Below are positions 5,200 through 42,339 of a stretch of 44,880 bases of DNA, in pieces (positions within the stretch are counted from its first letter, which is position 1; each line of letters begins with the position of its first letter). Under the pieces are notes generated by a model. It did not search any database, was not told where the DNA came from, and saw only the letters and a list, made by a program, of their open reading frames with translations. Both the position numbers and the translations under genes were made by a program. Source of the DNA: an uncultured Candidatus Saccharibacteria bacterium (lineage in GTDB: Bacteria > Patescibacteriota > Minisyncoccia > UBA6257 > UBA11618); assembly GCA_964488085.1 (NCBI GenBank), contig CAZATK010000002.1, positions 1-44,880 on the forward strand. The letters are read 5' to 3'.

Positions 5200-5206
5200 G
5201 CTCTAA

Positions 5207-5998
5207 TTATAGCAAATACCCAACTTTTTTTAACCAATATTCATTTTCCCACTCCCATAATTTTTTTGCCCCCAAAAAAGCTTGAAAATCCTCTTGCCAA
5301 TAGGGAAATTCTTTAAGTTCTACCACTCCCTTTAACTCCATCCACTCGTGTTTTCCACAGCCCTCCTTATCTACACAGTCTTTCCAGCCATAGGGCAGGG
5401 GATATGGTTTTCGTATTTTATCTCTTCCGCCCTTGCTTCTCATTGTGGATCTGCATATTTCGCAAGTTTTAATTTGATCAATGCGCATTATCCAGCGAGT
5501 TTGTAAATTTTTGAATTGATCTTTTAAAGCGTCAACATAAGCTGATGTTTGTAAATTATAATCTCTATATATTGATTGCGATGTTTTGATGTCTAGAACG
5601 CCGAATTTACCATCAATCAGAGCCAGCGTGTCTACTGTGCCCGCATAGCGATGTTTGGGATTAACAACTCTTTTTTCCACATATTCCGGAGAGACCTGAA
5701 TTTTATTTTTGCTTATAAAATTTACGGCCGCTTTTATTGCGGGAGCGATTGATGGGTCAATGGTGGGGGATTCCCCTATTAAAATCTTTTCAAATGCCTC
5801 ATGGATTAATGTGCCTTCGGCAGCTGACTTAGTTTTTATATCTTCACCGGCCTGAAATGTTCCGAGCTCTGCATAAAACTTATATAATGCTGGTTTGGCT
5901 TTTATTTCCACTATCTTAGTCACTCGGGGATACCAGATACCGTCTATGACATATCCGCACTGCTCTTTAAAATTATCGGCATTATTAAATTGATACAT
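5207..5998 (-). CDS. PD-(D/E)XK (RecB/Cas4/lambda-exonuclease-like) nuclease with Cys-rich insertion
   Basis: 263 aa. GTLIHE, GTVDTLALIDGKFGVLDIKTSQ (D..D-x-K) and QTSAY (QxxxY), then CEIC...C..C..H, a zinc-ribbon-like segment. Confidence 0.7.
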   Translation of the reverse strand: MYQFNNADNFKEQCGYVIDGIWYPRVTKIVEIKAKPALYKFYAELGTFQAGEDIKTKSAAEGTLIHEAFEKILIGESPTIDPSIAPAIKAAVNFISKNKIQVSPEYVEKRVVNPKHRYAGTVDTLALIDGKFGVLDIKTSQSIYRDYNLQTSAYVDALKDQFKNLQTRWIMRIDQIKTCEICRSTMRSKGGRDKIRKPYPLPYGWKDCVDKEGCGKHEWMELKGVVELKEFPYWQEDFQAFLGAKKLWEWENEYWLKKVGYLL

Positions 5999-6042
5999 TG
6001 TTGTTTGTGTTTGATTTTAACACAGATTACCTTCAGAGACCC

Positions 6043-6231
6043 AAACCAAAATCCTTACTTCTCTCAACCCCTTACGGTCGCTCCAGCGGCGACCTCCAGT
6101 TCTTCTCGCCACGGCGAAGTTTTTGTTTTAAGGATAATTGTAACAAAAACACCTCGCTCGTGATTCTATTAAGAATCACTTCGCTAGCTTCGCCTGCTCG
6201 AAAGGTTTCGAGTAAGTAAGGATTTTGGTTT
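6043..6231. ncRNA. unassigned GC-rich multi-helix element closed by a perfect 18-bp helix
   Basis: aaaccaaaatccttactt (6043-6060) is the exact reverse complement of 6214-6231. Internal hairpins at 6076-6094, 6102-6119, 6119-6150 (9 bp), 6160-6179 (8 bp) and 6197-6212. Family and strand unknown. Confidence 0.4.
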
Positions 6232-6285
6232 ATTGAAAAGAGAACCCTTTTATATACTGTCGCACAATATACCTTTTGCGACACA

Positions 6286-7611
6286 CTACTCATTATGATT
6301 ATGATGATCCTCGTCTTCTGATTCAAATAAGCCACCGCTTCGGCCCATGTTTTCGATGTACAAAGCCAGTCCCTGTGAATCCAAATAACTTAATGGATTA
6401 ATATCTCCTCCTGATGGCATTAATCCGCAACTTTTACTTGATCTCATACTAAATGAATTTCCATCATAAACGGTAAAGTGCAAATGAGATCCAGTAGAAT
6501 AGCCAGTATTGCCGACATATCCAATAATATCCCCCCTCTTAATTTGTGAGCCAGGAGTAGTTGATATTTGAGAAAGATGGGCAAAAAGGGTCACTAAATT
6601 GTTTGAGTGTCTTATTACTATGTATTTTCCATACGCTCCTTTACGACAAAATTGGTCCTGATTACCAGTATTGAGGACAATTCCGTCATCTGGAGCCACG
6701 ATAGTCGTCCCAATTGGCGCTCCGATATCTATGCCGTTATGCCACTTACCTTTATAACCATAGCGTGCAAATTTAGTCGCTCCATATCCCTGGGTCATCT
6801 TACGTCCGATAATTGGCCAACTTAAAACTCCGGCCCTGCGCGCCGGTAAAGCGTTAGGATCGATCCTAGCACGCAAATCCGCTTCAAATTGTTCGATTTC
6901 TTCGGCAATTTGAACTTGTTTCTTCGCTAATTCATCAATTATCTGCTGATAAATTTTTTCTTGATTCTTAGTATCGGATAATAATATTTGCCTCTCTTTT
7001 TTCTCATCTTCTACTAATACTTTGCGAACTTTTAAGTTTTGTTGTTCTTTTTCTTTGCTAGATTTCTTTTTGGATGCAGTTTCTAATTTTTCATCCAAAT
7101 TTAATTTGAGATCTTGTAACTCATTTTCTTCTTCATATAATTGGTTTTTGACATCGCTTAGGGCCTCGCTTTCCGTAATTCCTTCTGCCAGGGTTTTATT
7201 TTTTAAAAATACTATCAAGAAATCTTCGGCGTCTTGCGACTGTATTTCTCTTAATATTTTATTGATTGCGCTTTTTTTTAGGTCAATTTTTTGTTTGGTC
7301 TTATCTATATCATATTGTAAGGATTCAATTTCTAAATTCAGTTTATCTATAGTTACCTCGCTAAGATTGATATTCAAATTAAGCTGATAAATATTACTGC
7401 TGGCCTTTTTCAATTCTTGCTGTAATGTTTGACTTTTTTCTGTTGTTTCCAGTAATGTTTTTTGCGTTTCTTGAATTTTGTTATTAATTTCTTGTAATTG
7501 TTTAGATTTATCTAGTATGGAGTTTTGTAATTGTTCTGGAGCTAAAATGCCCCATGCCTTGTTAGTTAGTATAAAAACAATAAAAAATATGACTGATAGA
7601 AGGCGTTTCAT
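6286..7611 (-). CDS. M23-family metallopeptidase with N-terminal coiled coil (EnvC-like)
   Basis: Signal peptide and a long heptad-rich region. HNGIDIGAPIGT and GNTGYSTGSHLHF motifs. Acidic, His-rich tail. Confidence 0.9.
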   Translation of the reverse strand: MKRLLSVIFFIVFILTNKAWGILAPEQLQNSILDKSKQLQEINNKIQETQKTLLETTEKSQTLQQELKKASSNIYQLNLNINLSEVTIDKLNLEIESLQYDIDKTKQKIDLKKSAINKILREIQSQDAEDFLIVFLKNKTLAEGITESEALSDVKNQLYEEENELQDLKLNLDEKLETASKKKSSKEKEQQNLKVRKVLVEDEKKERQILLSDTKNQEKIYQQIIDELAKKQVQIAEEIEQFEADLRARIDPNALPARRAGVLSWPIIGRKMTQGYGATKFARYGYKGKWHNGIDIGAPIGTTIVAPDDGIVLNTGNQDQFCRKGAYGKYIVIRHSNNLVTLFAHLSQISTTPGSQIKRGDIIGYVGNTGYSTGSHLHFTVYDGNSFSMRSSKSCGLMPSGGDINPLSYLDSQGLALYIENMGRSGGLFESEDEDHHNHNE

Positions 7612-7628
7612 TATTAATTTAATTAATT

Positions 7629-9029
7629 TTATTGTAACTTATTAACGGCAATTTGAATTCTTCTTAAAGATTCTTCTTTGCCTAGTATATCTATTATTTC
7701 TAGCGGACCAGGAGATTCTTTTAAGCCCGAAAGAGATACTCTAAGCGGCCAAAATATTTCTCCACGTCCTTTTTTTTCTGCGACTTCTGGAATATCCCTT
7801 TCTTTATTTTCTTCGATTAGCTTGTAAACTATCTGCAAGGATTTCGCAATTTCTTCTTTTGTCATGTTTTGCCATCCTAATATTTGCGCGTCATAATCGG
7901 GCAGTTGAAAGAAAAATAAGGATAAATCGGCAAATTGACCGATGGTTTGAGCGCGATCCTTATACAGCTTTATTATTTTTAAGTTTTTATCAGAAACTTC
8001 CCAATTTAATTTTTGAAGTATTTCTTCATTAGATAGTTTTTTAATGTATTGAGCGTTAATCCAGGCCAATTTATCGGCATTAAAAACAGCGCCGGCTTTT
8101 TGCGCTTTTGATAAATTCATTATCTGAATTAATTGCTCCAATGAAAAAATTTCCTGATTATCTTGAGGATGCCAGCCTAAAAGAGAAAGAAAATTTACTA
8201 CAGCTTCCGGCAGATATCCCCGATTTCTGTATTCTTCAATGGTAGTTGCAGAAAACCTCTTAGACATTTTACTTCTGTCAGGATCAAGAATGAGAGGCAG
8301 ATGGGCATAATGAAGTTTATTAAAATCAAAGGCCTCGCCAAGAAGAATTTGTTTTGGAGTATTGGCAATATGATCCTCGCCCCTTATCACATGAGTTATT
8401 TGCATCTCTTGGTCGTCAATAGCAACGGCAAAATTATAAAGCGGTGTTTTTATATCTTTAGCTATTGCTATGTCGCCCATCATTGCGGTATCAAAACTAA
8501 TTTCTCCCCTAATCATATCCCTAAAAGAAACTTTTCTTTCCGGCATTTTAAACCTAATGAGCTGCGGTTCTCTGTTTTTAGGCGGATTGTTAAGACAGCG
8601 TCTGCTATATCTAGGGGCTAGTCCTTGAGAAAGCATGGCTTGTCTTTCCTCCTCTAATTCTTCTTTAGTGCAATAGCAATAATAGGCGTTTCCTTTGTCT
8701 AATAATTGTTTAAGATATTTTTCGTAGATATCTAGTCGTTCGCTTTGTCTGTATGGCCCAAAGCCACCTTTATATTCATTAGTAAATAATTGTCCTTCAG
8801 CCGCAATATTTTTTGGCCCTTCGTCCCAATCTAGTCCTAACCAATGCAAACTTTCTATTATGTCTTTTTCAAATTTTTTATCCGATCTTTCTAAGTCGGT
8901 ATCTTCAATGCGCAGAATAAATTGCCCATTATTTTTTTTAGCAAAAAGATAATTAAAAAGAGCGGTACGAGCAGTACCTATATGCAAAAAACCCGTCGGT
9001 GAAGGGGCTATCCTTACCCGAACTTTCAT
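7629..9029 (-). CDS. gltX: glutamyl-tRNA synthetase
   Basis: HIGTAR (HIGH) and KMSKR (KMSKS) motifs; 466 aa. Confidence 0.93.
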   Translation of the reverse strand: MKVRVRIAPSPTGFLHIGTARTALFNYLFAKKNNGQFILRIEDTDLERSDKKFEKDIIESLHWLGLDWDEGPKNIAAEGQLFTNEYKGGFGPYRQSERLDIYEKYLKQLLDKGNAYYCYCTKEELEEERQAMLSQGLAPRYSRRCLNNPPKNREPQLIRFKMPERKVSFRDMIRGEISFDTAMMGDIAIAKDIKTPLYNFAVAIDDQEMQITHVIRGEDHIANTPKQILLGEAFDFNKLHYAHLPLILDPDRSKMSKRFSATTIEEYRNRGYLPEAVVNFLSLLGWHPQDNQEIFSLEQLIQIMNLSKAQKAGAVFNADKLAWINAQYIKKLSNEEILQKLNWEVSDKNLKIIKLYKDRAQTIGQFADLSLFFFQLPDYDAQILGWQNMTKEEIAKSLQIVYKLIEENKERDIPEVAEKKGRGEIFWPLRVSLSGLKESPGPLEIIDILGKEESLRRIQIAVNKLQ

Positions 9030-10150
9030 GAGTTAATTGTATCATTTAGATGGCTAATTACCAATATATCCTTAGCTATAACTTCTGCCGCGTTTGGTTT
9101 TGCAAATAATCTAGCCGCTTCAGACATTTTATTATATAAATTTTTATCAGAAAGTATTTTTTCTACTTGATTTAAAAATGTTTCAGCAGAAAGATTATTT
9201 TCTTCTATGACAATACCCGCGCCACTTTTAGCGTATTCAATGGCATTAATCTTTTGATGATTATTGGCTGATTCCGGCAAAGGAATCAAAATCGATGGTT
9301 TTTCAAAGAATGCTATTTCAAATATGGATGAGCCAGAACGAGATATTATCAAATCGGCGGCCGAATAGGCCTCGCTGATATTATTTTTAAAAAAAGCAAA
9401 GCACTTATACCTCTCTTTAACGCTTTCCGGCCAATTTTTGCTTATAGAATTATATGATTCGATATATTTTTGATGATTAGCTGAACCAACTTGGTGCAAT
9501 ATTTGAAATTTGGGCAAAAAAAGTTCTAAATTTTTTAATATAAAATTGTTAATTCTTTGTGCCCCTTGTGACCCTCCTAAAATTAAAATTACAAAATCTT
9601 TTTCTTTGAAATTAAAACTTTTTTTTGCTTCTAGCTCATTTATCTTCTTATTGACAATTTCTTCTCTTAATGGTATTCCAACTACACTTGTATTTTTATT
9701 GGGAAAATATTTTTTAGTATAATCCCATCCTAATTCAATTTTTACGGCTAGTTTCCCCGATAATCTATTGGTAATGCCAGGTATTGTATCTGATTCATGA
9801 ATAATTATTGGTATTCTATATATCCAGCACGCTAAAAGCACCGGAAGCGCGCCTGTTCCCCCTTTAGAAAAGGCGACATCAGGCATGAATAGCGCTATTT
9901 TTAATAGTGACTGAATAATGCTGATTGGTATTTTGATAAAATCTATAAAATTTAACCATGACCAATAACGACGAAATTTAGCGCCTAATATTTTTTCTAT
10001 GGCAATGTTTTCCGATTTTAAATAATTGTTGTAGCTACTATTGGGACCATAATATCTAATTTCAGCTAACTGTCTTAATTTTTTGGCTACGCTTGCTAAT
10101 GGATATATATGACCGCCCGTTCCTCCGCCGGTTAAAAGTATTTTCGTCAT
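9026..10150 (-). CDS. murG: undecaprenyl-PP-MurNAc-pentapeptide GlcNAc transferase
   Basis: ILLTGGGTGGHIYP N-terminus, GGSQGA motif, and dcw context. Confidence 0.9.
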   Translation of the reverse strand: MTKILLTGGGTGGHIYPLASVAKKLRQLAEIRYYGPNSSYNNYLKSENIAIEKILGAKFRRYWSWLNFIDFIKIPISIIQSLLKIALFMPDVAFSKGGTGALPVLLACWIYRIPIIIHESDTIPGITNRLSGKLAVKIELGWDYTKKYFPNKNTSVVGIPLREEIVNKKINELEAKKSFNFKEKDFVILILGGSQGAQRINNFILKNLELFLPKFQILHQVGSANHQKYIESYNSISKNWPESVKERYKCFAFFKNNISEAYSAADLIISRSGSSIFEIAFFEKPSILIPLPESANNHQKINAIEYAKSGAGIVIEENNLSAETFLNQVEKILSDKNLYNKMSEAARLFAKPNAAEVIAKDILVISHLNDTINS

Positions 10151-11283
10151 TATTTATTGGAATATTTAGATATGTTATTTGCAATTCCTATAATTGTCAT
10201 AAAAATAGCTAGGGCAGTTCCGCCATAACTAATAAACGGCAGAGGTGTGCCAGTTAGGGGTAATAGCCCAGAAATCGCTCCGATATTAACAAAAGATTGC
10301 AGAGCAATCAAGCACCCAAAACCAACTAATAAAAGCTGTCCAAATTTATCTCTAACCTTTTTAGCAATTAAAAATATTCTTAAAATCAGCATAAGCAGAA
10401 GTCCTATTAAAGTAATACTGCCAACAAATCCAAATTCTTCGGCAACGACTGCAAAGATTGAATCGTGGAGCGGTTCTGGTAAATAATTTATTTTTGTTGT
10501 TGACTGACCATAACCTACCCCCCAGAGACCACCCGAACCAATAGCAATTTTAGCTTGGTTTACTTGATATCCAGAAGTTTGTAAATTTTGTTCTGGCTTC
10601 AAAAAGGCAGAAATACGATCCCAACGATAGGGGCTGGTGTAAATAGCGATGCCCAATACTGAAGCGACGAGAGCTATAATGCAAATTATATAAATAAAAC
10701 GAGTTCCGCTTGCAAAATACATGGCTATTGATGTCGCGACTAAAATTATGGCGGTGCTGGTAGCTGGTTGTTTAATTAGCAGAAAAAATATTGATCCCAA
10801 AATAATTAAAAACGGTACAAGTCCTTTGCTAAAATTCTTCTGTCTCTGATCATCATGGCTTAACCAAGCGGCAAGGTAAATTATAAATATTAATTTTATT
10901 ATTTCTGAAGGTTGGAAACTAATGGGGCCTAGTTGAATCCAGCGTGTTGCGCCTCCAATATTTATTCCTAAGGGCGTAAATATTAATAACAGAAGAATAA
11001 CCCCAATAATTAATAGTGGTAAGGCCAATTTTTCGTGATAGCGATAATAAATTTTTGCGCCCAGCAAAAATCCTATTAATCCTAAACTTAATCCATAAAA
11101 AATTTGGTGTTTTAAGTAGTAATAACTATTTCCGATATCTTCTTTTGCTAAATATGATGAGGCGCTACTTAAAACAACCAAGCCAAAAATAATTAACAAT
11201 ACAGTGGTGAATATAAGAATATAGTCATTATGACCGCCACTTTTTAAGATTTTAAGTTTGCTTATCATGCAAGATATGGCCAA
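10150..11283 (-). CDS. ftsW: SEDS-family FtsW/RodA
   Basis: Polytopic membrane protein with LPLTGTPLPFISYGGTA. The start could be an internal Met (11268), because 11283 overlaps the upstream gene by 32 nt. Confidence 0.88.
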   Translation of the reverse strand: MAISCMISKLKILKSGGHNDYILIFTTVLLIIFGLVVLSSASSYLAKEDIGNSYYYLKHQIFYGLSLGLIGFLLGAKIYYRYHEKLALPLLIIGVILLLLIFTPLGINIGGATRWIQLGPISFQPSEIIKLIFIIYLAAWLSHDDQRQKNFSKGLVPFLIILGSIFFLLIKQPATSTAIILVATSIAMYFASGTRFIYIICIIALVASVLGIAIYTSPYRWDRISAFLKPEQNLQTSGYQVNQAKIAIGSGGLWGVGYGQSTTKINYLPEPLHDSIFAVVAEEFGFVGSITLIGLLLMLILRIFLIAKKVRDKFGQLLLVGFGCLIALQSFVNIGAISGLLPLTGTPLPFISYGGTALAIFMTIIGIANNISKYSNK

Positions 11284-12652
11284 AATTTGATTCTCCGTTT
11301 ATCACAACTCTTCGCGCTTCATTATTTTCTAACAGAACTAAATCGGCAAAATAATTTTCTTTTATCATTCCCCTATTTTTTAAATTCAGAATTTGAGCGG
11401 GCAGAGACGTTATTTTAGCAATGGCTTTTTCTAACGGCCAGCGTTTCTCATTGGTTATAGATAAAAAGTTATTAAATGGGGGTTTAATTAGCGCTTTATT
11501 GTCTTCAATTAATTTTAATATCCATTCATAATTAATATTTTTTATTGCGATTAATCCCCTTAAGTCGGTTATTCTCATTAATTCTAAAAGAGCTTTGTTT
11601 TGACTAATTTCTCTGTTTTCTGCAAAATCTTTGATGGTTTTATTAATTAAGTAATTATGTTCGTGCGCCTTTATAATCACAGAGTCGCCTTTTATTTTTG
11701 GCAGTTCCGATAATATTTTTTTTTCGTTGATTGGATTTTTTATTATCAACGTCATTTCTTGTAAATTGCCTTTTTGCGCCCAGAGCGGAAGCAATGTATA
11801 AAAAGGAACAATGTTGGTATCTGTTGGAGAAACCGCAAAGAAGAATCCATCTCCCCCTCTTTGAATAATTTCGTATCCTAATTCAAATTCTTTTTCAAAA
11901 TCTAGAAACGGCAAGAAACGATTAACAATAGTTTTGGCTCCAGTATTTTTATAAATATCATATATTTCATTCACTGATTTCACTATTTCTTCTTTTTCGT
12001 TGCGGAGGTGGGTAGTGTAAATAGCATTGTATTTTGCCACCACAGAAACTAATTCTTTTACTTCTTTTTGAGGCGTTTGTCTTTCATGAGCATAATTTAA
12101 GCCAGTTGATAAACCTTTGGCGCCTTCTTTCAGGGCTTGTTCTAGGATTGTCTTAAACATTGATGTTTCTGGATCCGTTAAATCAGTGGAACTTTCTCCC
12201 ACCAAATCTCTTCTTATAGTTGAATGTCCTACTAAACTGCAGAAATTAATTCCCATTGGCAATTTTTTTATTGTTTTAGTAAATTCCTGAAAAGTATGCC
12301 AATTTACATTAATTTGATTAATGTCCGTCCATTTTCTTATTGATTTTAATGAGCCATATAAAAGTGGCGCTAGAGACGCTCCCCCGTGTCCGCCAACTGT
12401 CGTTGTTATGCCTTGTTTTGTTAAATCTTGTTGTTTGGGATTAGTAAAAATTGATAAGTCGTGGTCAATTTCTGAATTAACATCTATAAATCCTGGAACT
12501 AAATAATTGCCCAAGCCCTCTATTGTGACTTCTGTTTTTTTGTTGGAAAAATTGCCGATAGCCGATATTTTTTCTCCAGAAATTAAAACATCTCCCGGAA
12601 AAGCCGGCTTGCCGGAACCGTCAATAATCTTGACGTTTTTAATGAGAATCAT
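11252..12652 (-). CDS. D-aminoacylase-like amidohydrolase-fold protein, metal-ligand motif degenerate
   Basis: KNVKIIDGSG...GFIDVNSEIDHD, where the family has DxHxH. GITTTVGGHGG, YTTHLRNE, and C-terminal SLPAQILNLKNRGMIKENYFADLVLL. Confidence 0.7.
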   Translation of the reverse strand: MILIKNVKIIDGSGKPAFPGDVLISGEKISAIGNFSNKKTEVTIEGLGNYLVPGFIDVNSEIDHDLSIFTNPKQQDLTKQGITTTVGGHGGASLAPLLYGSLKSIRKWTDINQINVNWHTFQEFTKTIKKLPMGINFCSLVGHSTIRRDLVGESSTDLTDPETSMFKTILEQALKEGAKGLSTGLNYAHERQTPQKEVKELVSVVAKYNAIYTTHLRNEKEEIVKSVNEIYDIYKNTGAKTIVNRFLPFLDFEKEFELGYEIIQRGGDGFFFAVSPTDTNIVPFYTLLPLWAQKGNLQEMTLIIKNPINEKKILSELPKIKGDSVIIKAHEHNYLINKTIKDFAENREISQNKALLELMRITDLRGLIAIKNINYEWILKLIEDNKALIKPPFNNFLSITNEKRWPLEKAIAKITSLPAQILNLKNRGMIKENYFADLVLLENNEARRVVINGESNFGHILHDKQT

Positions 12653-20645: not shown

Positions 20646-20652
20646 GTTTGTG

Positions 20653-21072
20653 AGTGGCAAGCAATAAGCCGGATTCTGTCGAGGACAACCATTTATCTAA
20701 GCGGCACCCCGCCAGTGCAACGCACTGGCGGTACGGCCTTGCATTCAAGTAAGGATTTAGCTGTTTCACTTCTGGCTTGTGTCCCTATACCAGATTTAGA
20801 CCAACTAGCTTGGGATTGGGTCTCCTCGCGACTTTCGTCGCGGGGCATCACTGTTCGCACCTCTGTATTACTACTGACGAGCTTGCGCTCGCTACCTTAT
20901 TACTTTTCTTCAAAGTGAATGTCCGGACTTTCCTCCAACTTTGTTTGAGCGAAGCGAAACTACAAAGTTGAGAGCCTCGCCGAAGCCCTAAAGGGCGAAG
21001 GCGGGCACATCATATTTTGTAATTTATCACTAGCTTGAAAACAAAATCAGCGATTGTCTAACTTACCACTGT
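20653..21072 (-). ncRNA. rnpB: RNase P RNA (bacterial type-A-like)
   Basis: Minus strand carries GAGGAAAGTCCGGAC (plus 20921-20935, P4 5' strand) and ACAGAATCCGGCTTA (plus 20665-20679, P4 3' strand). P1 pairs agtggtaag (21062-21070) with cttgccact (20653-20661). TATAAT lies at plus 21077-21082. Ends are approximate. Confidence 0.85.
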
Positions 21073-36906: not shown

Positions 36907-38709
36907 CTACTTCTTAAGTAATTCTTTAAAGATGTTGGCGGGAATTTTTATGTCACTTTGTTGTGCCACTTCTTTCAACCTCGTTTTTCCTCTTTGTTGT
37001 TTTTTCCATAATTTCATTTTTCTGGTTCTATCTCCGCCGTATAGGTAGCCGGTAACATCTTTTTTCATGGCTGGAATTGTTTCTCTAGAAATTATTCTGC
37101 CTTTAACCGCCGCTTGAATGGCTTGTGTAAATTGTTGTTTTGGTAAGAATTCTTTCAATCGCTCTACTGTTATTTTTGCTTCTCTCGGAATTTTTTCTTG
37201 AGGCAAAATTCTTGTTAGTCCCGGAACTAAATGGCCAGAGATTAATACTTCTAATTTTTCCAATTTACTTTTTTCATAGCCAATCAATTCATAGCTCATA
37301 GAAGCGTATCCTTCGGATAATGATTTTAATTTATCGTCTAAATCGCTTATTAAATCTGCCAGAGGTAATTTGGCCGATAATAAAACTTTATTGCCCAAGG
37401 TTTTTGTTTCAAAATTGCCGAAACGAAAAATTTCTTTTAAAGATAAAATACTGCCTAAATATTTTGGCGGAGATAAAATTTCTACTTTAGTGATCGGTTC
37501 TAAAGCCTCTTGGTAGTCCAAGGGAAAATCCTTCGGATTTTTAATTTCTAAATATTCTTGTTGTTTTCCAATTGGAAGAACTTTATAGGCAACAGAGGGA
37601 AAACTGTGAACTGTTTTAATCTTAAATTCTCTTTCTAATCTTTCGGCGGTTATTTCAAAATGCAATCTTCCTAAAAATCCGCCCTTAAATCCCCTTCCCA
37701 ATATTTCGCTAGATTCAGGATGAAAATTTAATGAAGCGTCAGTTAATCTTAATTTTGCCAGGGCTTTTTTTAGATTTTCATAATTATCATTTTCTTCCGG
37801 ATAAAATGATACGAAAACAACCGGTTGCGGTTCTTGATAGCCGGGTAAGGCCAGGTCTTCTAATTTCGAATTTCGAATTTCGAATTTCGAATTTATGATA
37901 GTATCTCCTATTTTTAATAACCCCGGGTCTTTAATGCCGGTGGCAATATAACCAATTTCCCCATCATTTAATTGCTCGCAATTTCTTAATTGAGGATAAA
38001 AATATCCCACCTCCTTAATATTAGCTTGGCTATTGTTGGCTAGAAATTTCACAGAATCCCCTCTTTTAAATTGCCCGCCAAACAAGCGAACAAAAGCAAT
38101 TACTCCTTTATGGTCATCATAAAGAGAGTCAAACACAAGCGCTCTAGATACTTCTTTTTGTTTTTTGGGTGGAGGAATTTGTTCAATTATTTGATCAAGC
38201 AAAAAATCCACACCTTCCCCCGTTTTTCCTGAAATTTTTATAATATCTTCTTTTTTGATATTTAATAACGCGGCCAAATCTTCAATGACATCTTCTAATT
38301 GAGAAGGATTTAAATCTATCTTATTAACGGCTCCGACAATTTTTAAATTTGCCTTTTTAGCATTTTCAAAATTAGCTAATGTTTGGGCTTGGATTCCTTG
38401 AGTGGCATCAACTAATAAAATTGCTCCTTCTACGGCGGTTAAAGCCCGAGACACCTCGTAACTGAAATCATTATGTCCCGGAGTGTCAATTAAATTCAGA
38501 ATATGATCCTTATAAATCATGCGGACTGGCGCCATTTTAATTGTAATTCCCCGTTCTCGTTCCAATTCCAGTTGATCTAAATATTGTTCTTTCATTGCTC
38601 GTTTTTCAATTGTCCCCGTCATTTCCAATAATCTGTCGGCTAAAGTAGATTTGCCGTGATCAATGTGAGCAATAATACAGAAATTTCTTATTTTTTCTAG
38701 ATTTGACAT
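36907..38709 (-). CDS. lepA: translation elongation factor 4
   Basis: NFCIIAHIDHGKSTLADRLL, DTPGH, NKID, and a C-terminal LepA-type tail. Confidence 0.95.
   Translation of the reverse strand: MSNLEKIRNFCIIAHIDHGKSTLADRLLEMTGTIEKRAMKEQYLDQLELERERGITIKMAPVRMIYKDHILNLIDTPGHNDFSYEVSRALTAVEGAILLVDATQGIQAQTLANFENAKKANLKIVGAVNKIDLNPSQLEDVIEDLAALLNIKKEDIIKISGKTGEGVDFLLDQIIEQIPPPKKQKEVSRALVFDSLYDDHKGVIAFVRLFGGQFKRGDSVKFLANNSQANIKEVGYFYPQLRNCEQLNDGEIGYIATGIKDPGLLKIGDTIINSKFEIRNSKLEDLALPGYQEPQPVVFVSFYPEENDNYENLKKALAKLRLTDASLNFHPESSEILGRGFKGGFLGRLHFEITAERLEREFKIKTVHSFPSVAYKVLPIGKQQEYLEIKNPKDFPLDYQEALEPITKVEILSPPKYLGSILSLKEIFRFGNFETKTLGNKVLLSAKLPLADLISDLDDKLKSLSEGYASMSYELIGYEKSKLEKLEVLISGHLVPGLTRILPQEKIPREAKITVERLKEFLPKQQFTQAIQAAVKGRIISRETIPAMKKDVTGYLYGGDRTRKMKLWKKQQRGKTRLKEVAQQSDIKIPANIFKELLKK
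37862..37894 (-). repeat. perfect heptanucleotide tandem repeat (AATTTCG x4 plus partial) inside lepA
   Basis: aatttcg at 37862, 37869, 37876 and 37883, then aattt. Encodes NSKFEIRNSKL. Confidence 0.9.
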
Positions 38710-38773
38710 AATAAAGTTTATGAAGCATTTATACCATATTTTTATAATTAAGTGGAGAATTTAAAATAAAAAA

Positions 38774-38810
38774 AATCGCCTAGAAGATCGATTATATCTT
38801 CTAGGCGATT
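38774..38810 (-). terminator. strong rho-independent terminator (15-bp stem plus U-run)
   Basis: aatcgcctagaagat / atcttctaggcgatt with a 7-nt loop, followed on the minus strand by T8. A second 10-bp hairpin at 38810-38837 contains the stop codon. Confidence 0.75.
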
Positions 38811-38834
38811 AGTAAGTGATGTTTAGTTCACTTA

Positions 38835-39218
38835 CTAGTCTTCCAGGAGGTCCGAATCCCACTCCTCTTCCTCCTCTTCTCCTGGGAAGGGAATGAGTAC
38901 CGGCTCCTGGCTCTCCTCGCTCTCCACACTCGCTTGCGGGAAGCGAATGTGCGAGTAGTTCAGGGCGACGATTCCGTACACCACGACGTCACCGGAGCTC
39001 CTCTCCGCTTCGTCGTAGACGCGCTGGGCATAGCCCTGGGCAATCTTCATGTCGGTGAAGACACGACTATTGCCGAAGAGCTCGCGGACGCATTCGACGT
39101 CCAGTCCGCCGCTCCCGTCGCTCAGGTTCTCGATCGCCTGCGCGTGAGCGATCCTGTACTCCTTTTTGCCACGGCTGCCTTTGGTGGCAAGGACGTAGAC
39201 GCCATCGTTTGCTGACAT
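38835..39218 (-). CDS. orphan GC-rich protein with poly-Glu acidic tail
   Basis: 127 aa. AAGGAG lies 6 nt before the ATG. Counted lines 38941-39000 and 39001-39060 are 58% and 60% GC, versus 20% for 38701-38760. C-terminus GEEEEEEWDSDLLED. No family recognised. Confidence 0.7.
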   Translation of the reverse strand: MSANDGVYVLATKGSRGKKEYRIAHAQAIENLSDGSGGLDVECVRELFGNSRVFTDMKIAQGYAQRVYDEAERSSGDVVVYGIVALNYSHIRFPQASVESEESQEPVLIPFPGEEEEEEWDSDLLED

Positions 39219-39274
39219 GACTAGCTCCTTTTGCTAAGGGAGAAGACGACCCTATGTCATCTTCAACTTTCTAC

Positions 39275-39303
39275 AGTATAGCAGATTAATGATTATTTGT
39301 CAA
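39275..39303 (-). promoter_or_regulatory. near-consensus promoter TTGACA-17 nt-TATACT
   Basis: Minus-strand -35 is plus 39298-39303 and -10 is plus 39275-39280. The leader contains a 9-bp hairpin. Confidence 0.65.
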
Positions 39304-39321
39304 TAGCTTGGCAAAACCAAC

Positions 39322-39345
39322 AAAAAACCCCCGAAAGGAGCTTTT
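39322..39345 (-). terminator. strand-specific terminator hairpin plus U-run
   Basis: Minus strand: GCTCC-TTTC-GGGGG TTTTTT. It needs two G-U pairs, so it folds only on the minus-strand RNA. Confidence 0.5.
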
Positions 39346-39356
39346 TTATTCTAATA

Positions 39357-39487
39357 TAGAACCCCGCCTGTAAGATTCTTCCGGCAAAAGCCAGGTTGGA
39401 TGATCGCAACTTAGTTCCTCAGAACCAAGCGATATTGATCTTCCTAAAAATTGATATTTAGCCCGGAATCTTAAAGGCGGAGTTCTA
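39357..39487 (-). ncRNA. unassigned 131-nt structured element between ndk and its terminator
   Basis: Closing helix of about 24 bp: tagaactccgcctttaagattccgg with ccggaagaatcttacaggcggggttcta. Inner hairpin cttggttc-tgag-gaactaag. One U-G pair favours the minus strand. Confidence 0.4.
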
Positions 39488-39504
39488 TAATTATTGTATC
39501 ACAA

Positions 39505-40059
39505 TCATTCTAAAATACTATTCAACTCTTCTTTTTCAAACCACAAATCTATTTCTTTTACAGCATCAGACGCATTGCCCGAAGCGTGAATTAGATTTCT
39601 TACGGATCGGCCGTTAGTATCGGCCATTTCATAAGAGTCAACGGAAAAATCCCCTCTTATTGTGCCAACATCCGATGTTAGTGGTTCGGTACCGCCAACA
39701 ACTTTTCTTATTATACTAATCGCATGTGGCCCTTCCCATGCCATAATTATCAATGGTTCGGAGCTCATGTAATGTTTAAGATTTTTGAGCACCATCTCTG
39801 CGATTTTTAAAGGATCTTCTGATGGCGGTTTTTTACCCTTTTTCTTATACGAGTCAATGGTTTTTTGTCCGGTTATCAATTTCCAATTAGGGTCAAGAAG
39901 ATAATGCTTTTCAATAAGTTTGGGCGTAGCTGTCATCATTTTCATCCCAACAAGTTTAAGGCCGGTTCTCTCAAAGCGCTTAATAATTTCTCCTGTAAGA
40001 GTTCTTTGTATGCCGTCCGGCTTTATAATAACTAGCGTTCGCTCTTCTTTTAGATTCAC
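39505..40059 (-). CDS. ndk: nucleoside diphosphate kinase (with insertion)
   Basis: ERTLVIIKPDGIQR and NLIHASGN (active-site His). About 40 extra residues mid-protein. Confidence 0.88.
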   Translation of the reverse strand: MNLKEERTLVIIKPDGIQRTLTGEIIKRFERTGLKLVGMKMMTATPKLIEKHYLLDPNWKLITGQKTIDSYKKKGKKPPSEDPLKIAEMVLKNLKHYMSSEPLIIMAWEGPHAISIIRKVVGGTEPLTSDVGTIRGDFSVDSYEMADTNGRSVRNLIHASGNASDAVKEIDLWFEKEELNSILE

Positions 40060-41477
40060 TTTTTTATTTCAAGCCCCAAATCCTTTAACTGATCTTTGCT
40101 TATTTCACTTGGAGATTCCATCATTAAATCCTGCGCATCTCCTGTTTTTGGAAAAGCAATTACCTCACGAATATTTGGTTCGTTCATTAGTATCATTAAA
40201 AAACGATCGATGCCCGGAGCTATACCGCCATGAGGCGGAGCGCCATAAGATAACGCCTCAATCATATGGCCAAAACTATTTATTATTTTTTCTTCGCTCA
40301 TTCCCATTATTTCAAGAACCGCCCTTAACGCTTCGGGTTTATGATTGCGAATGCTTCCTCCGCCAATTTCATGTCCATTGAGAACTAAATCATATTGTTC
40401 TGTTTTTATTTCACTTATATTAGTTTTTTTCATTAACCATTCCATGTGTTCTTTTTTGGGAGCGGAAAAAGGATTGTGGGTAAATGTCCATTTGCCATTG
40501 TCTGTTTTTTCAAAAAATGGAAAATCTGTGATCCAAGCAAAAGCCAATTCATTGGGATCGTTTTTATCTTTTCTTAAATCTGGTTTATCAGTCCCGTATT
40601 TCTCCATAGCTTCTGCGTAAGTAAATTGAGGAAAGGGCGTTTGCGAAATTTTTTTATCAGGAAAGAGCTCTTTAACAATTTTTATATACAAATCTTCAGT
40701 CAAACTCATAATATCTTCTTTTTCAACAAAACTCATTTCTAAGTCAAGTTGCGTGAATTCTTGCTGTCTGTCTCCGCGGGTGTCTTCGTCGCGAAAGCAT
40801 TTGGCTATTTGAAAATATTTTTCAAATCCAGAGACCATTAATAATTGTTTGTATTGTTGGGGAGATTGCGCGAGCGCGTAAAACTTTCCGGGATGGAGTC
40901 GTGAGGGAACTAAATAATTGCGTGCGCCCGTTTCTGTATTGGCTTTGGAAACAACCGGCGTTTCAATTTCCACAAAATCTTTTTCATTAAGATAATCTCT
41001 AATAAAACTAACCACCTCGTGGCGCGCTGTTATGTTTTTTTGCAAACGAGGGCGGCGCAAATCCAGATAACGGTACTTTAATCTATTTTCTTCTCCTATT
41101 TCATAACCATCGGTATCAACGGCAATGGGCGGTGTTTTAGATTGATTTAAAACTTCTAAATCGCTGACAAGAACCTCCCATTTACCACTAGCTATTTCCG
41201 GATTAACAAGATTTTCAGGCCTTTTATTTACCATGCCCGATACTTTAATAACCCACTCGGGACGAAGATGGCCTGCCTTTTCAAATAAATCCTTTTCTTT
41301 TGATAAAAAAACCAGTTGAGCTATGCCGCGCTGATCTCTCATATCTATAAATATTATTTTTCCATGATCTCTTCTTGCCCCAACCCAGCCCATAAGGGTA
41401 ATTTTATTGCCCTCTTCTGACCCAATATCTGCTACGTAAGTTCTTTTCATAATAATCTTTATTTTAATATTTTTCAC
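40056..41477 (-). CDS. aspS: aspartyl-tRNA synthetase, bacterial-type core without GAD insertion
   Basis: GWVGARRDHGKIIFIDMRD, FYALAQSPQQYKQLLM and CFRDEDTRGDRQQEFTQLD. About 460 aa versus about 590. The start may be MKRTYV (41447). Confidence 0.92.
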   Translation of the reverse strand: MKNIKIKIIMKRTYVADIGSEEGNKITLMGWVGARRDHGKIIFIDMRDQRGIAQLVFLSKEKDLFEKAGHLRPEWVIKVSGMVNKRPENLVNPEIASGKWEVLVSDLEVLNQSKTPPIAVDTDGYEIGEENRLKYRYLDLRRPRLQKNITARHEVVSFIRDYLNEKDFVEIETPVVSKANTETGARNYLVPSRLHPGKFYALAQSPQQYKQLLMVSGFEKYFQIAKCFRDEDTRGDRQQEFTQLDLEMSFVEKEDIMSLTEDLYIKIVKELFPDKKISQTPFPQFTYAEAMEKYGTDKPDLRKDKNDPNELAFAWITDFPFFEKTDNGKWTFTHNPFSAPKKEHMEWLMKKTNISEIKTEQYDLVLNGHEIGGGSIRNHKPEALRAVLEIMGMSEEKIINSFGHMIEALSYGAPPHGGIAPGIDRFLMILMNEPNIREVIAFPKTGDAQDLMMESPSEISKDQLKDLGLEIKK

Positions 41478-42339
41478 TGAAGATATGCAAATTTTCTTTT
41501 TCTGGAATAATCTTAATTAAGCCATTGTCTATAGTTGTATAAATAGATGCGCCAACGTCTTTTAATCTGTTAATTGTTTGCGGATTGGGGTGTCCATAAG
41601 AATTTTTTCCTACTCCAATGACGGCAATTTTAGGTTTCACGAATTTTAGAAATTTACTGCTTGTAGAATTTTTAGAGCCGTGGTGGCTGACTTTTAATAA
41701 ATCCGCTGATAGCCCCTTTTTATATTTTCGCAATAACTTTTCTTCCACCGCAAAATTTATATCTCCGGTGAACAATGCGTTAAAATTTTCTTCGCCAGCT
41801 GGCGAATTTAATTCAAACACAATAGTTTTGTCGTGAATGTCCTTAATGTCTTTGGTTGAAGACGGTTCGTTGGAAGATGGCGAAATAATTTCTATCAGCC
41901 AATCTTTATATTTTATTTTATCCCCCTCTTTTACCGTCAAATGTTGAATAGATTTATCAGAGACCTCCTTTTGAAAATCTTTGTATTGGGAGATACTATG
42001 CTCCATTCCATTATCAATAAGAGTCCCAATCTCATAATTTTGAAAAACATCAATCAAACCGCCAAGGTGATCTAAATGCGGATGAGTCAAAATAACCAAA
42101 TCAATATACCTGTCAGTAGTCGGTAATATTTTTTCTAAATTGCTCAAGACTTGCGCGTTAGGACCGCCGTCAATAAGAAATTGAACATCACCAAAATCTA
42201 TTAATTCACTATCGCCTTGACCGACATCTAAAAAATATAGCTCGACAGGCTTGCTGTTGTTTTTATGAAGATTCCAAATTTGAGCCCAAGCGACAATATT
42301 AAAAAGAAATAGCAAAAAGATTAATAATAATCGTTTCAT
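41464..42339 (-). CDS. ComEC-type metallo-beta-lactamase domain protein (separate ORF)
   Basis: Own signal-like N-terminus. YFLDVGQGDS, THPHLDHLGG and SHHGS. Confidence 0.8.
   Translation of the reverse strand: MKRLLLIFLLFLFNIVAWAQIWNLHKNNSKPVELYFLDVGQGDSELIDFGDVQFLIDGGPNAQVLSNLEKILPTTDRYIDLVILTHPHLDHLGGLIDVFQNYEIGTLIDNGMEHSISQYKDFQKEVSDKSIQHLTVKEGDKIKYKDWLIEIISPSSNEPSSTKDIKDIHDKTIVFELNSPAGEENFNALFTGDINFAVEEKLLRKYKKGLSADLLKVSHHGSKNSTSSKFLKFVKPKIAVIGVGKNSYGHPNPQTINRLKDVGASIYTTIDNGLIKIIPEKENLHIFSEKY

Follow-up and report, generated by a model that had tools for sequence, protein, structure and literature searches.

Why should one short gene in an AT-rich chromosome hold about 60% GC over almost exactly the length of its reading frame? 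The window analysed here (the whole stretch of DNA, 44,880 nt) carries at 38835..39218, on the minus strand, the 127-aa ORF that the original prediction had described; it begins with ATG, ends in GEEEEEEWDSDLLED and has a GC content of 0.599, compared with 0.357 for the window without the gene. Three readings had been offered for this island: a very recent acquisition from a high-GC donor, an ORF kept GC-rich for an RNA-level reason, and an assembly chimera. The RNA-level reading has the best support of the three, from folding z-scores, sense/antisense asymmetry and covarying hairpins, and an mRNA that is base-paired to an unusual degree is a better explanation of the 60% GC than recent import or assembly error.

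Composition and layout of the cassette

The gene lies 5.6 sd out when compared with all 384-nt windows outside it (mean GC 0.357, sd 0.043, max 0.516). In 30-nt steps the GC profile rises from 0.20–0.33 to 0.57–0.70 and comes back down within about 30 nt of the start and stop codons, so the composition jump does coincide with the ORF boundaries; the flanks, originally put at 20–30% GC, are AT-rich as stated, but their actual range is 20–43%. The GC contents of the three codon positions are 0.65, 0.38 and 0.77 (GC3 0.773), against a GC3 of 0.21–0.36 in all other genes of the window, ribosomal proteins L27 and L9 included, and host-rare codons make up 24% of the gene. Amino-acid composition was rejected as the sole cause, since recoding the 127-aa protein with host codon usage gives an expected GC of only 0.428 against the actual value of 0.603. 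Codon bias from translational selection was also rejected, the ribosomal protein genes having a GC3 of only 0.23–0.34.

The predicted position between lepA (36907..38709) and ndk (39505..40059) is correct, and aspS, DivIC, prfB, ftsE and ftsX are further neighbours; no phage genes were found within ±10 kb. The stretch from ndk to the cassette described below also contains a conserved ncRNA-like element of 131 nt, which has a terminator of its own. A three-way alignment delimits a cassette of 613 bp (38728..39340, minus strand). The window shares it with L001, another contig of this sample, and L198, the closest relative, lacks it. The unit is made up, in order, of a terminator, a promoter, a UTR hairpin, the gene, a 3′ hairpin and a terminator, and every expression signal named in the original prediction, from the promoter to the T8 run, was found. 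At the upstream edge is a terminator-like hairpin (39322..39346, minus strand), which would insulate the gene from read-through out of ndk and the ncRNA-like element; the hairpin of L001 at this position differs in sequence. The sigma-70-type promoter TTGACA-17-TATACT (39275..39303, minus strand) was located by a consensus scan with 11/12 matches and an extended -10 TG, and TTGACA/TATAAT-type promoters also lie upstream of the homologs in L001, L007, L109, L113 and L205. It is followed by a 5′-UTR hairpin, GAAGAUGAC-AUAGG-GUCGUCUUC (39242..39264, minus strand), which is 100% identical in the diverged allele of L001, and by the RBS AAGGAG (39225..39230, minus strand), 6 nt upstream of the ATG.

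On the other side of the gene, the 3′ hairpin GUAAGUGA-ACUAAACA-UCACUUAC (38812..38835, minus strand) starts within the stop codon, after which an in-frame TAA comes next, and related loops of the form (U)ACCUnnAAAC occur in the post-stop hairpins of L001, L004, L005 and L113. The intrinsic terminator (38764..38810, minus strand) consists of a 15-bp stem (38810..38774) and T8, and L001 has a different stem at this position. A search of the cassette ends for a target-site duplication or att repeats gave only an AT-rich 7-mer of no weight, in agreement with the original prediction that an att-like duplication is absent. No convincing antisense promoter was found in 38600–39600 by consensus scan.

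Sharp GC boundaries such as these could arise if reads of a high-GC organism had been joined into an AT-rich contig. However, the gene and its flanks are alike on the NCBI contig and the ENA contig, with identical junctions, and the independent contig L001 carries another allele with matching promoter, UTR and lepA junctions. The boundaries fall on the RBS, the stop-codon hairpin and the terminator, and the GC-rich pattern recurs in homologs from several other Patescibacteria genomes. The chance of an assembly chimera is so slight as to be nearly negligible, and the cassette is a real self-contained accessory gene unit of a Patescibacteria (Parcubacteria-type) chromosome.

The protein family and its fold

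The description of the protein as an orphan without a recognisable family was right for curated libraries but not beyond them. The MSADNG[IV]YIL family, defined in the present analysis by a core of about 95 aa, has 148 representatives by phmmer (E≤1e-3) and at least 709 proteins by profile search (E≤1e-5, in a database clustered at 90%), and links large phages, Firmicutes mobile elements and Patescibacteria (CPR) chromosomes, in all of which it is frequent. The window protein carries the N-terminal MSADNG[IV]Y[IV]L, E20-Y-R22-V, AIEN, FG..VF.D, A60...A64, EYG and the C-terminal FP by which members are recognised. Nearly invariant in the core are M1, S2, D4, N5, Y8, L10, E20, R22, V23, I29, F48, A60, A64, E80, G82, F93 and P94. 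Searches of Pfam, PHROGs, NCBIfam and PADLOC with the window protein and 65 family members gave only single chance-level matches; the PADLOC anti-phage defence models had none to the window protein and three single-member chance-level matches among the 65 members. Pfam had no match to 10 longer fused family members, tblastn of INPHARED phages with the window protein and one phage member gave no match, and nothing relevant was found in the literature on the family motif or on GC-rich structured ORFs in the candidate phyla radiation. Judged by these searches, the protein family is large and absent from every curated library. There are 161 IMG/VR matches of the family, which lie in modules that include ribonucleotide reductase, glutaredoxin and exonuclease, and the phage members sit within DNA/nucleotide-metabolism (replication) modules.

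As modelled by AF2 (pLDDT 85–87.5), the protein is of a small α/β type. Its folded core, residues 1–97 (38928..39218, minus strand), is predicted to have the order β-β-α-α-α-β and has no PDB fold match: Foldseek with the full-length and core models reached a best E of 0.16–0.18 and a TM of ≤0.37 against the PDB, and the best hit of a PDB sequence-profile search was a designed protein (E 0.02). Against BFVD, the sole Foldseek match was an uncharacterised family member.

The remaining residues, 98–127 (38838..38927, minus strand), form an acidic tail (EEEEEEWDSDLLED) that is predicted to be disordered (pLDDT 59–68). The tail had been likened to those of SSB or DNA-mimic proteins, and it could then be the functional part, either as an SSB-like partner-binding segment or by mimicking DNA and so titrating DNA-binding proteins. 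SSB combines an OB fold with a conserved acidic C-terminal tip, and Ocr and ArdA are DNA-mimic proteins. The window protein resembles them in a C-terminus that is acidic, predicted to be disordered and equipped with an aromatic residue; the L001 tail is acidic too, with aromatic residues, the phage relatives are found in replication and nucleotide-metabolism modules, and two Patescibacteria clade members adjoin dnaB or dnaG. In contrast to these proteins, the tail is unconserved within the family, where it ranges from poly-Glu to poly-Arg (Arg-rich in L003, L195, L196 and P0027, neutral in L002), its model is of low confidence, and the core had no SSB, OB-fold or DNA-mimic structural match. 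The comparison with SSB and DNA mimics finds no support as a family feature, and a functional tail of this kind is very unlikely.

A structured non-coding RNA, in which the 127-aa ORF would be an accident of high GC, would agree with the strongly negative folding z-scores reported below and with the GC peaks of this genome, which mark structured RNAs, namely RNase P RNA (the window's other GC peak) and tRNAs. GC-rich DNA also yields long chance ORFs, for example a 93-aa antisense ORF; it was rejected as a conserved gene, being absent as a conserved frame in L002. Against a non-coding RNA, members of the conserved protein family that range from 26% to 64% GC have the N-terminus and core residues in common, indels between homologs are multiples of three, pS exceeds pN, AF2 models the fold with confidence, the ATG has a consensus RBS at the proper spacing, and there is no Rfam match. 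The dN/dS is 0.33 between the window and L001 alleles and 0.3–0.7 across the clade. Family size, dN/dS and the confident fold establish that the gene is real and coding, and an accidental ORF is scarcely credible.

Alleles and GC excess in the Patescibacteria clade

The window protein belongs to a Patescibacteria chromosomal clade (average-linkage cluster 7) together with L001, L002, L003, L195, L196, L109 and others. The clade is marked by RG..GKKEYRV, a PDYP-type insert and KIAEGYA motifs and by a monocistronic unit with its own promoter, although the window protein is without most of the PDYP insert. It is the one clade of the family that persists as single-gene units in Patescibacteria chromosomes. 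Its mean GC excess is +0.106, with 12 of the 13 complete members positive; the clustering took in 12 of these members, all positive, and L205 was added later. L205, from a 47% GC host, has no GC excess, which fits a GC floor and equally plain amelioration to a mid-GC host. The excess is -0.005 in the phage clade (n=93) and +0.006 in the Firmicutes clade (n=19), and among the family members compared it thus appears only in the CPR chromosomal clade.

The two alleles from one sample differ far more than the DNA around them. Between the window and L001, dS is 0.56 for the gene and about 0.04 for the lepA fragment, and there are no changes in the 113 nt upstream; identity along the gene is mosaic, with one 47-nt block identical. 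By these divergences the alleles are far older than their near-identical flanks, which implies allele exchange by homologous recombination across the conserved flanks and UTRs. Both alleles have a GC3 of 0.77–0.78. A diversity-generating retroelement (DGR) target was considered and rejected, as genes within ±10 kb have no RT domain and the variation, which in a DGR target is confined to adenine-templated positions, is gene-wide here, with indels and all kinds of substitution. L198, at 90% LepA identity, has ndk, the ncRNA-like element and lepA in direct succession, with 190 nt from ndk to lepA, and other relatives have different inserts in this slot, at host-like GC. Among close relatives the cassette is polymorphic for presence and absence.

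Recent import from a high-GC bacterium or phage, with the gene seen before amelioration and its GC content without function, would account for the deviant composition and the host-rare codons, and absence from the closest sibling is equally expected of a recent gain. The L002 homolog is next to transposases and that of L196 is at the margin of an island that carries recombinase genes. Polarised third-position changes point the same way, with 21 of type S>W and 9 of type W>S where 78% of the sites are S (small counts, with a biased parsimony); S>W still outnumbers W>S, and this leaves room for slow decay of an imported gene. However, the two alleles of one sample keep the same high GC3 at a dS of 0.56 between AT-rich flanks, and since homologous replacement needs donors with matching AT-rich flanks, AT-rich genomes must be where the alleles reside. 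The excess is also clade-wide: alleles 0.44–1.3 apart in dS all have a GC3 of 0.77–0.92 in hosts of 35–52% GC, even where dS between members is above 1, and none of the 13 complete clade members analysed, which come from the part of the family for which DNA context was obtained, has a high-GC host (≥0.58), host GC being 0.35–0.52. A Giovannonibacteria homolog (43% identical, with a LepA that is 48% identical) has the matching position upstream of lepA, although this shared position could be a coincidence. The promoter, RBS and terminators are host-like, and neither the folding z-scores nor the strand asymmetry is explained by recency. The substitution pattern gives an equilibrium GC3 of about 0.6, compared with 0.28 for the host, again from small counts and biased parsimony. 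Of the originally proposed acquisition, the cassette nature is supported and the recency and the high-GC donor are not, and recent import as the cause of the island is unlikely. If GC is instead kept up by selected base-pairing, the island would be a maintained property and not the sign of a recent import.

With GC-biased gene conversion at a recombination hotspot, frequent recombination of diverged alleles would give heteroduplex mismatches in the polymorphic ORF alone, and their GC-biased repair would raise GC precisely from one conserved UTR to the other. Allele exchange is evident here, the segment that is polymorphic is also the one where GC jumps, the conserved UTRs being AT-richer, and a link between recombination and GC3 has been reported in bacteria (PMC4450053). 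Such conversion does not predict folding energies below those of shuffled sequences, a sense-strand bias or covarying pairs, and the other variable inserts of the ndk–lepA slot have remained at host-like GC. Reported bacterial gene-conversion effects amount to a few percent of GC3, and the gap between 0.28 and 0.77 exceeds them. Biased conversion is a distinctly improbable source of the island.

Predicted mRNA structure and the proposed role of the gene

Compared with dinucleotide shuffles, the coding sequence has a folding z of -3.8 to -4.4 in the window, -4.1 to -4.9 in L001, -5.0 to -7.6 in L109 and -7.0 to -7.4 in L004. The z-score is negative in 14/14 clade members (mean about -3.2), with weak values in L193 (-0.7 to -1.5) and in L003 and L005 (about -1.6 to -2.1); it averages about -1.0 in other family clades and lies between -1.0 and +1.0 in 7/8 other gene segments of the window. 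Folding is better on the sense strand (-3.22) than on the antisense strand (-1.84; Wilcoxon p=0.003). In the predicted fold AAGGAG pairs with codons 9–10 (GUC CUU) and the AUG with codons 5–7, and most clade members, along with some of the phage members, have a predicted pairing between the SD and an anti-SD as well.

Two hairpins lie within the coding sequence. The first, a two-tier hairpin over codons F48–G62 (FGxxRVFTDxKIAxG; 39035..39078, minus strand), is kept across the Patescibacteria clade with covarying pairs: 82% of alignment cells are paired, against 25–47% with the partners slid, pair 13–42 is AU in six and GC in five sequences, and pair 21–34 is GC in six and UA in three. The structure evidence is computational and comes from 12–14 related sequences; the covarying pairs overlie a conserved peptide motif and could reduce to just two or three independent events. 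The second, an 11-bp hairpin CACAUUCGCUU-CCCGC-AAGCGAGUGUG (38925..38951, minus strand), falls within the 47-nt block that is identical in the window and L001. Nine compensatory pairs were counted among three alleles. A conserved inner stem of the FG..RVFTD hairpin in Saccharibacteria members was rejected, only 3 bp being kept and the inner helix being 75% paired. Rfam gave no gathering-score match in the window and only chance-level matches at E≤10 over 38650–39560; at E≤1, the best matches at four homologous loci were well below gathering scores and outside the gene, with none for L196.

The reading preferred here, which has about an even chance of being right, is that of a self-contained accessory cassette of about 613 bp whose GC is kept by selected mRNA base-pairing, whose alleles are exchanged and whose protein acts in phage–host conflict. 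The coding RNA of the clade would be selected for extensive base-pairing, which would raise GC, and above all GC3, far above that of the host. The structure probably controls mRNA stability and/or translation, with SD and AUG sequestered in the predicted fold, and alleles are swapped by homologous recombination via the conserved flanks and UTRs. Because of the phage origin, the polymorphism and the fast evolution of the protein, a role in phage–host conflict is, from context, most likely; the product could, for instance, be an early phage protein that has been domesticated and interferes with phages that infect the cell. A more specific version can be put forward tentatively, and is rather more doubtful: a dual-constraint gene peculiar to Patescibacteria, in which a phage-derived protein is encoded by a selected base-paired mRNA with conserved leader, internal and 3′ hairpins, producing an ORF-delimited GC island that mimics horizontal transfer, while hypervariable alleles recombine in the course of phage–host conflict.

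The cassette can be compared with several known systems. Morons are autonomous transcription units of one gene each, found inserted between genes that are neighbours in related phages (PMC4378225). Like a moron, the cassette consists of one ORF, has a promoter and a terminator to itself and is inserted where genes adjoin each other in the close relative L198 (ndk, the ncRNA-like element and lepA); its composition deviates from that of its neighbours, it has no recombinase or recognisable target repeats, and its protein family is of phage provenance. Unlike a moron, it sits between the core chromosomal genes ndk and lepA, outside any phage or prophage, its deviant composition is clade-wide and seemingly maintained, and its mRNA is unusually structured. 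Searches of GC-rich intergenic regions such as DIMPL build on the structured ncRNA islands of AT-rich bacterial genomes (PMC8723152). The gene shares with these islands a sharp GC peak, a folding energy below that of shuffles and covarying stems, but here the peak is an ORF that is translated into a conserved protein, and it has no Rfam match.

Type I toxin–antitoxin systems of the hok/sok type have highly folded, translationally silenced mRNAs that encode a hydrophobic toxin of <60 aa, together with an antisense RNA. The gene is similar in its compact, monocistronic transcript, which has extensive predicted structure and a promoter and terminator to itself, in the pairing of its SD and start codon in the predicted fold, and in a family tied to mobile elements. 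It differs in its product, a 127-aa soluble α/β protein, and in the antisense promoter, which was not found in 38600–39600.

If the base-pairing reading is true, a GC island with sharp ORF boundaries can, in an AT-rich genome, be a maintained and selected mRNA property and not the footprint of a recent transfer, which is a caveat for compositional detection of horizontal gene transfer, in reduced genomes especially. The clade would then represent an undescribed kind of structured-mRNA accessory gene in the candidate phyla radiation, and possibly a new defence or exclusion determinant. Phage–host conflict in Patescibacteria is, to our knowledge, almost unexplored. An own promoter, structured UTRs, hypervariable alleles and presence/absence polymorphism are typical of phage–host conflict genes, and the clade with these strong signals is tractable to experiment. 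The 5′ and 3′ UTR elements and the ncRNA downstream of ndk are, in addition, candidate new RNA motifs.

Composition, signals and setting of the gene

The gene at 38835..39218 (minus strand) encodes a 127-aa protein that terminates in GEEEEEEWDSDLLED. The original observation of an ORF with a sharp jump to about 60% GC at its own boundaries is correct and reflects no artefact. The gene has a GC content of 0.599 against 0.357 for the remainder of the 44,880-nt window, which places it 5.6 sd outside the 384-nt windows beyond the gene (mean 0.357, sd 0.043, maximum 0.516), and GC steps up and down within ~30 nt of its start and stop codons. GC1, GC2 and GC3 are 0.65, 0.38 and 0.77, and GC3 is 0.21-0.36 in all other genes of the window, the ribosomal proteins L27 and L9 among them. 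Recoding the protein with host codon usage gives a GC content of 0.428, so that ~0.07 of the excess is due to amino-acid composition and 0.175 to synonymous codon choice. In the proposed comparison with host codon usage, codons rare in the host make up 24% of the gene and 7-11% of lepA, ndk and L27. All the signals first noted were found: the consensus promoter TTGACA-17-TATACT with an upstream TG (39303..39275, minus strand), AAGGAG, and two hairpins, the 3' one starting in the stop codon and the terminator having a 15-bp stem followed by T8. Tandem in-frame stops, TAG TAA (38832-38837, minus strand), close the ORF, the first sitting in the stem of the 3' hairpin.

The genes run in the order aspS, ndk, the gene, lepA, DivIC, a hypothetical gene, a prfB-like gene, ftsE and ftsX. 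The best named relatives of LepA are from a 'Patescibacteria group bacterium' (90% identical) and from Parcubacteria-type lineages (62-66%). Comparison of the lepA-ndk region with the closest relative, L198 (LepA 90% identical), shows ndk, an ncRNA-like element and lepA to be contiguous there, with a gap of 190 nt between ndk and lepA. Relative to L198, the window has 613 extra bases (39340..38728), made up of a terminator, the promoter, the leader, the gene, its 3' hairpin, a second terminator and, for lepA, a -10-like box. The cassette is real, autonomous and polymorphic. As first noted, no integrase lies near it: no integrase, transposase or reverse transcriptase was found within 10 kb of the gene, and no convincing target duplication at the cassette ends.

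The slot upstream of lepA is variable among these Parcubacteria-type genomes. It is empty in L198, and in more distant relatives it holds a 347-aa ORF on the opposite strand (L201), ORFs of 87 and 75 aa (L203) or a 279-aa ORF (L199), all of host-like GC and without a match in Pfam. In Giovannonibacteria, where LepA is 48% identical, a homolog (43% identical) lies directly upstream of lepA-DivIC-...-prfB-ftsE-ftsX. Either the linkage to lepA is ancient and has been lost repeatedly, or genes land preferentially in this slot.

The ncRNA-like element, conserved and ~130 nt long, lies immediately downstream of ndk (39352-39482, minus strand) and is followed in the window by its own terminator (39346-39322). 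It is ~88% identical in L198 and 100% identical over the 113 nt available in L001, the contig carrying a sibling allele. Its predicted three-way structure has 39 pairs, two with compensatory changes, and no Rfam family matches it.

In architecture, the cassette comes nearest to the phage 'moron', in which one gene of deviant composition, with a promoter and a terminator of its own, lies between genes that are adjacent in relatives (PMC4378225). The cassette shares all these features; however, its neighbours are core genes of the chromosome and its composition seems to be maintained.

A phage-associated protein family

The protein had been regarded as an orphan of no recognised family. This holds for the curated resources, since Pfam, PHROGs, NCBIfam, PADLOC, PDB sequences and PDB folds gave zero matches, but not for sequence space at large. 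With a word-indexed search, no more than two close relatives came up (65% and 58% identical), whereas an exhaustive phmmer search gave 148 cluster representatives at E<=1e-3 and a profile search 709 proteins at E<=1e-5. The gene thus belongs to a sizeable phage-associated family that nobody has previously characterised. Its members are 85-190 aa long and share the motifs MSADNG[IV]Y[IV]L, EYRV, AIEN, FG..VF.D, A...A, EYG and FP. AlphaFold2 predicts, with confidence (pLDDT 85-87.5), a beta-beta-alpha-alpha-alpha-beta core at residues 1-97, with a disordered tail; in BFVD the sole match, a Caudovirales member of the family, is itself uncharacterised. The acidic tail, for which a likeness to those of SSB or DNA-mimic proteins was suggested, is no feature of the family, in which tails range from poly-Glu to poly-Arg. 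The gene also failed the tests for an SSB-like protein, a DGR target, an Rfam family and a PADLOC defence protein.

The family has 161 matches in IMG/VR. At ~55 loci of large freshwater-type phages, the gene lies in a module for DNA and nucleotide metabolism with ribonucleotide reductase, glutaredoxin, a phrog_107 exonuclease and GIY-YIG endonucleases, and with phrog_11903 immediately downstream. A second clade occurs in Lachnospiraceae and Clostridia elements. The third is chromosomal in Patescibacteria (Saccharibacteria, Taylorbacteria, Giovannonibacteria and the lineage of the window), where the genes are stand-alone units adjoining unrelated housekeeping genes, namely dnaK (L004), dnaG (L007), glycosyltransferases (L005) and cysS/dnaB (L205). 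On the Saccharibacteria-like contig L196, the homolog lies on the margin of a low-GC island that carries recombinase genes. In this region (3000-12500), the GC content is 0.38-0.45 in the island against 0.5-0.6 elsewhere; a serine recombinase is inside the island and a tyrosine integrase a few kb beyond.

When the GC of 143 distinct family genes was compared with the rest of their own loci, the mean difference was -0.005 in the phage clade (n=93), +0.006 in the Firmicutes clade (n=19) and +0.106 in the 12 complete Patescibacteria members, all of them positive. The excess is +0.24 in the window, +0.20 in L001, +0.17 in L002 and L195, +0.13 in L196, +0.12 in L003 and L193, and lowest in L109 (+0.03). 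L205, added later from a 47% GC host, has none, leaving 12 of 13 positive. Gene GC in this clade stays at 0.47-0.64 over host GC of 0.35 to 0.52, so that the excess is greatest in the most AT-rich hosts. The GC excess is clade-specific and largely synonymous.

Alleles older than their flanks

L001 and the window's contig come from one ENA assembly. Between them, the upstream element is identical (113/113 nt), the promoter and 5' UTR hairpin are the same and the start of lepA has 2 differences in 135 nt, whereas the genes match at only ~80% of DNA and 65% of protein positions; they differ by codon indels, their identity is mosaic (with a block of 47 identical nt) and their terminators are not the same. 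A diverged allele between near-identical flanks argues against the assembly chimera once considered; both it and a spurious ORF can practically be dismissed. The alleles show a higher pS than pN (dN/dS 0.33) and differ by indels of whole codons, indicating that the ORF is translated and is no accident of a GC-rich RNA.

With dS of 0.56 for the gene against ~0.04 for the lepA fragment, the alleles predate their flanks and must have been exchanged by recombination. As homologous replacement requires the same flanks, GC-rich alleles must reside in AT-rich genomes. The gene is accordingly not simply a very recent acquisition, as had been proposed, and recent import from an unseen high-GC donor is unlikely, since GC3 is kept at 0.77-0.92 in all alleles and clade members separated by dS of 0.44 to >1. 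Of the third-position changes polarised among the window, L001 and L002, 21 are S>W and 9 are W>S, where S makes up 78% of sites; the per-site rates, from small numbers and biased parsimony, point to an equilibrium GC3 of about 0.6 rather than the 0.28 of the host. A recombination hotspot with GC-biased gene conversion appears less probable still as the source of the GC.

L001 also carries a MITE-like insertion of ~139 bp (169-317) within the -35 box of its promoter for the cassette, with 21-nt inverted arms (81% complementary) and, on its flanks, a duplicated TTGAC that regenerates TTGACA; the window has no copy. This 1090-bp contig terminates in an Illumina adapter (1055-1090; AGATCGGAAGAGCACACGTCTGAACTCCAGTCAC), left untrimmed in the public assembly.

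Folding of the mRNA

The best-supported explanation is that selection for a heavily base-paired mRNA would maintain the GC island, acting on stability and/or translational control. An RNA-level reason is also the best of the three options first offered, given the folding z-scores, strand asymmetry and a covarying hairpin, all in silico and from related sequences. Over its full length (38770-39272), the transcript has a folding energy of -220.8 kcal/mol, whereas dinucleotide shuffles give -168.6 +/- 7.2 (z -7.3); the CDS alone has z -4.0. CDS z is negative in every Patescibacteria clade member (mean -3.2 to -3.6), weakly so in some and lowest in L109 (-5.0 to -7.6), L004 (about -7), L113 (-5.4 to -6.0) and L001 (-4.1 to -4.9). 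It averages about -1.0 in twelve genes of other clades and lies between -1.0 and +1.0 in 7 of 8 control segments from window genes. Folding is stronger for the sense strand than for the antisense (mean z -3.22 vs -1.84; paired Wilcoxon p=0.003, n=14), as expected if G-U pairs in the transcript play a part.

Twelve clade members retain a two-tier hairpin spanning codons F48-G62, with 82% of cells paired against 25-47% in slid controls. Its pair 13-42, which joins a synonymous third position with a non-synonymous first position, is AU in 6 sequences and GC in 5; at pair 21-34, 6 sequences have GC and 3 have UA. For three alleles, RNAalifold predicts a structure of 124 pairs, of which 9 show compensatory changes. 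In the predicted fold, the SD and AUG are paired with codons 5-10. The leader hairpin is seen again in distant members, as is a hairpin at the stop codon whose loop is related.

The sole other GC peak of the window is the bacterial RNase P RNA (20650-21069, minus strand; GC 0.516, second only to the gene). GC peaks in this genome do mark structured RNA. At 58 bits (E 4e-17), it falls below the Rfam gathering score of 100 and goes unreported by a default scan. The gene resembles the GC-rich structured-RNA islands of AT-rich genomes, yet it is translated, and its likeness to the folded mRNAs encoding type I toxins is limited to RNA architecture. A sharply bounded, clade-wide GC excess combined with evidence of mRNA structure is unusual enough to merit follow-up.

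More tentatively, the product may act in phage-host conflict, as suggested by phage provenance, presence/absence polymorphism, the variable slot, the island-edge location and diverse alleles whose dN/dS (0.3-0.7) is relaxed or diversifying.

Saccharibacteria-type members (L003 6400-6500, L006 654-760, L195 7094-7200, L196 8373-8480) have in common a long conserved 3' UTR element (GGCGGCAAGGACAGGGCAACCUGGUGAAUAUGAAG...CAUAUUCUUUACCUUGCCGCC) and a 5' leader (ACCGGAUACUCAAC...UUGAGUAUCCGGAGAUGCCGGUACC) that is structured and in which some changes appear compensatory. Neither was matched by Rfam on L196, and both are candidate new cis-regulatory RNA motifs. In the window, a segment (41600-41983, minus strand) inside a 291-aa metallo-beta-lactamase-fold gene (41464..42339, minus strand) has a folding z of -4.8, far below the other control segments.
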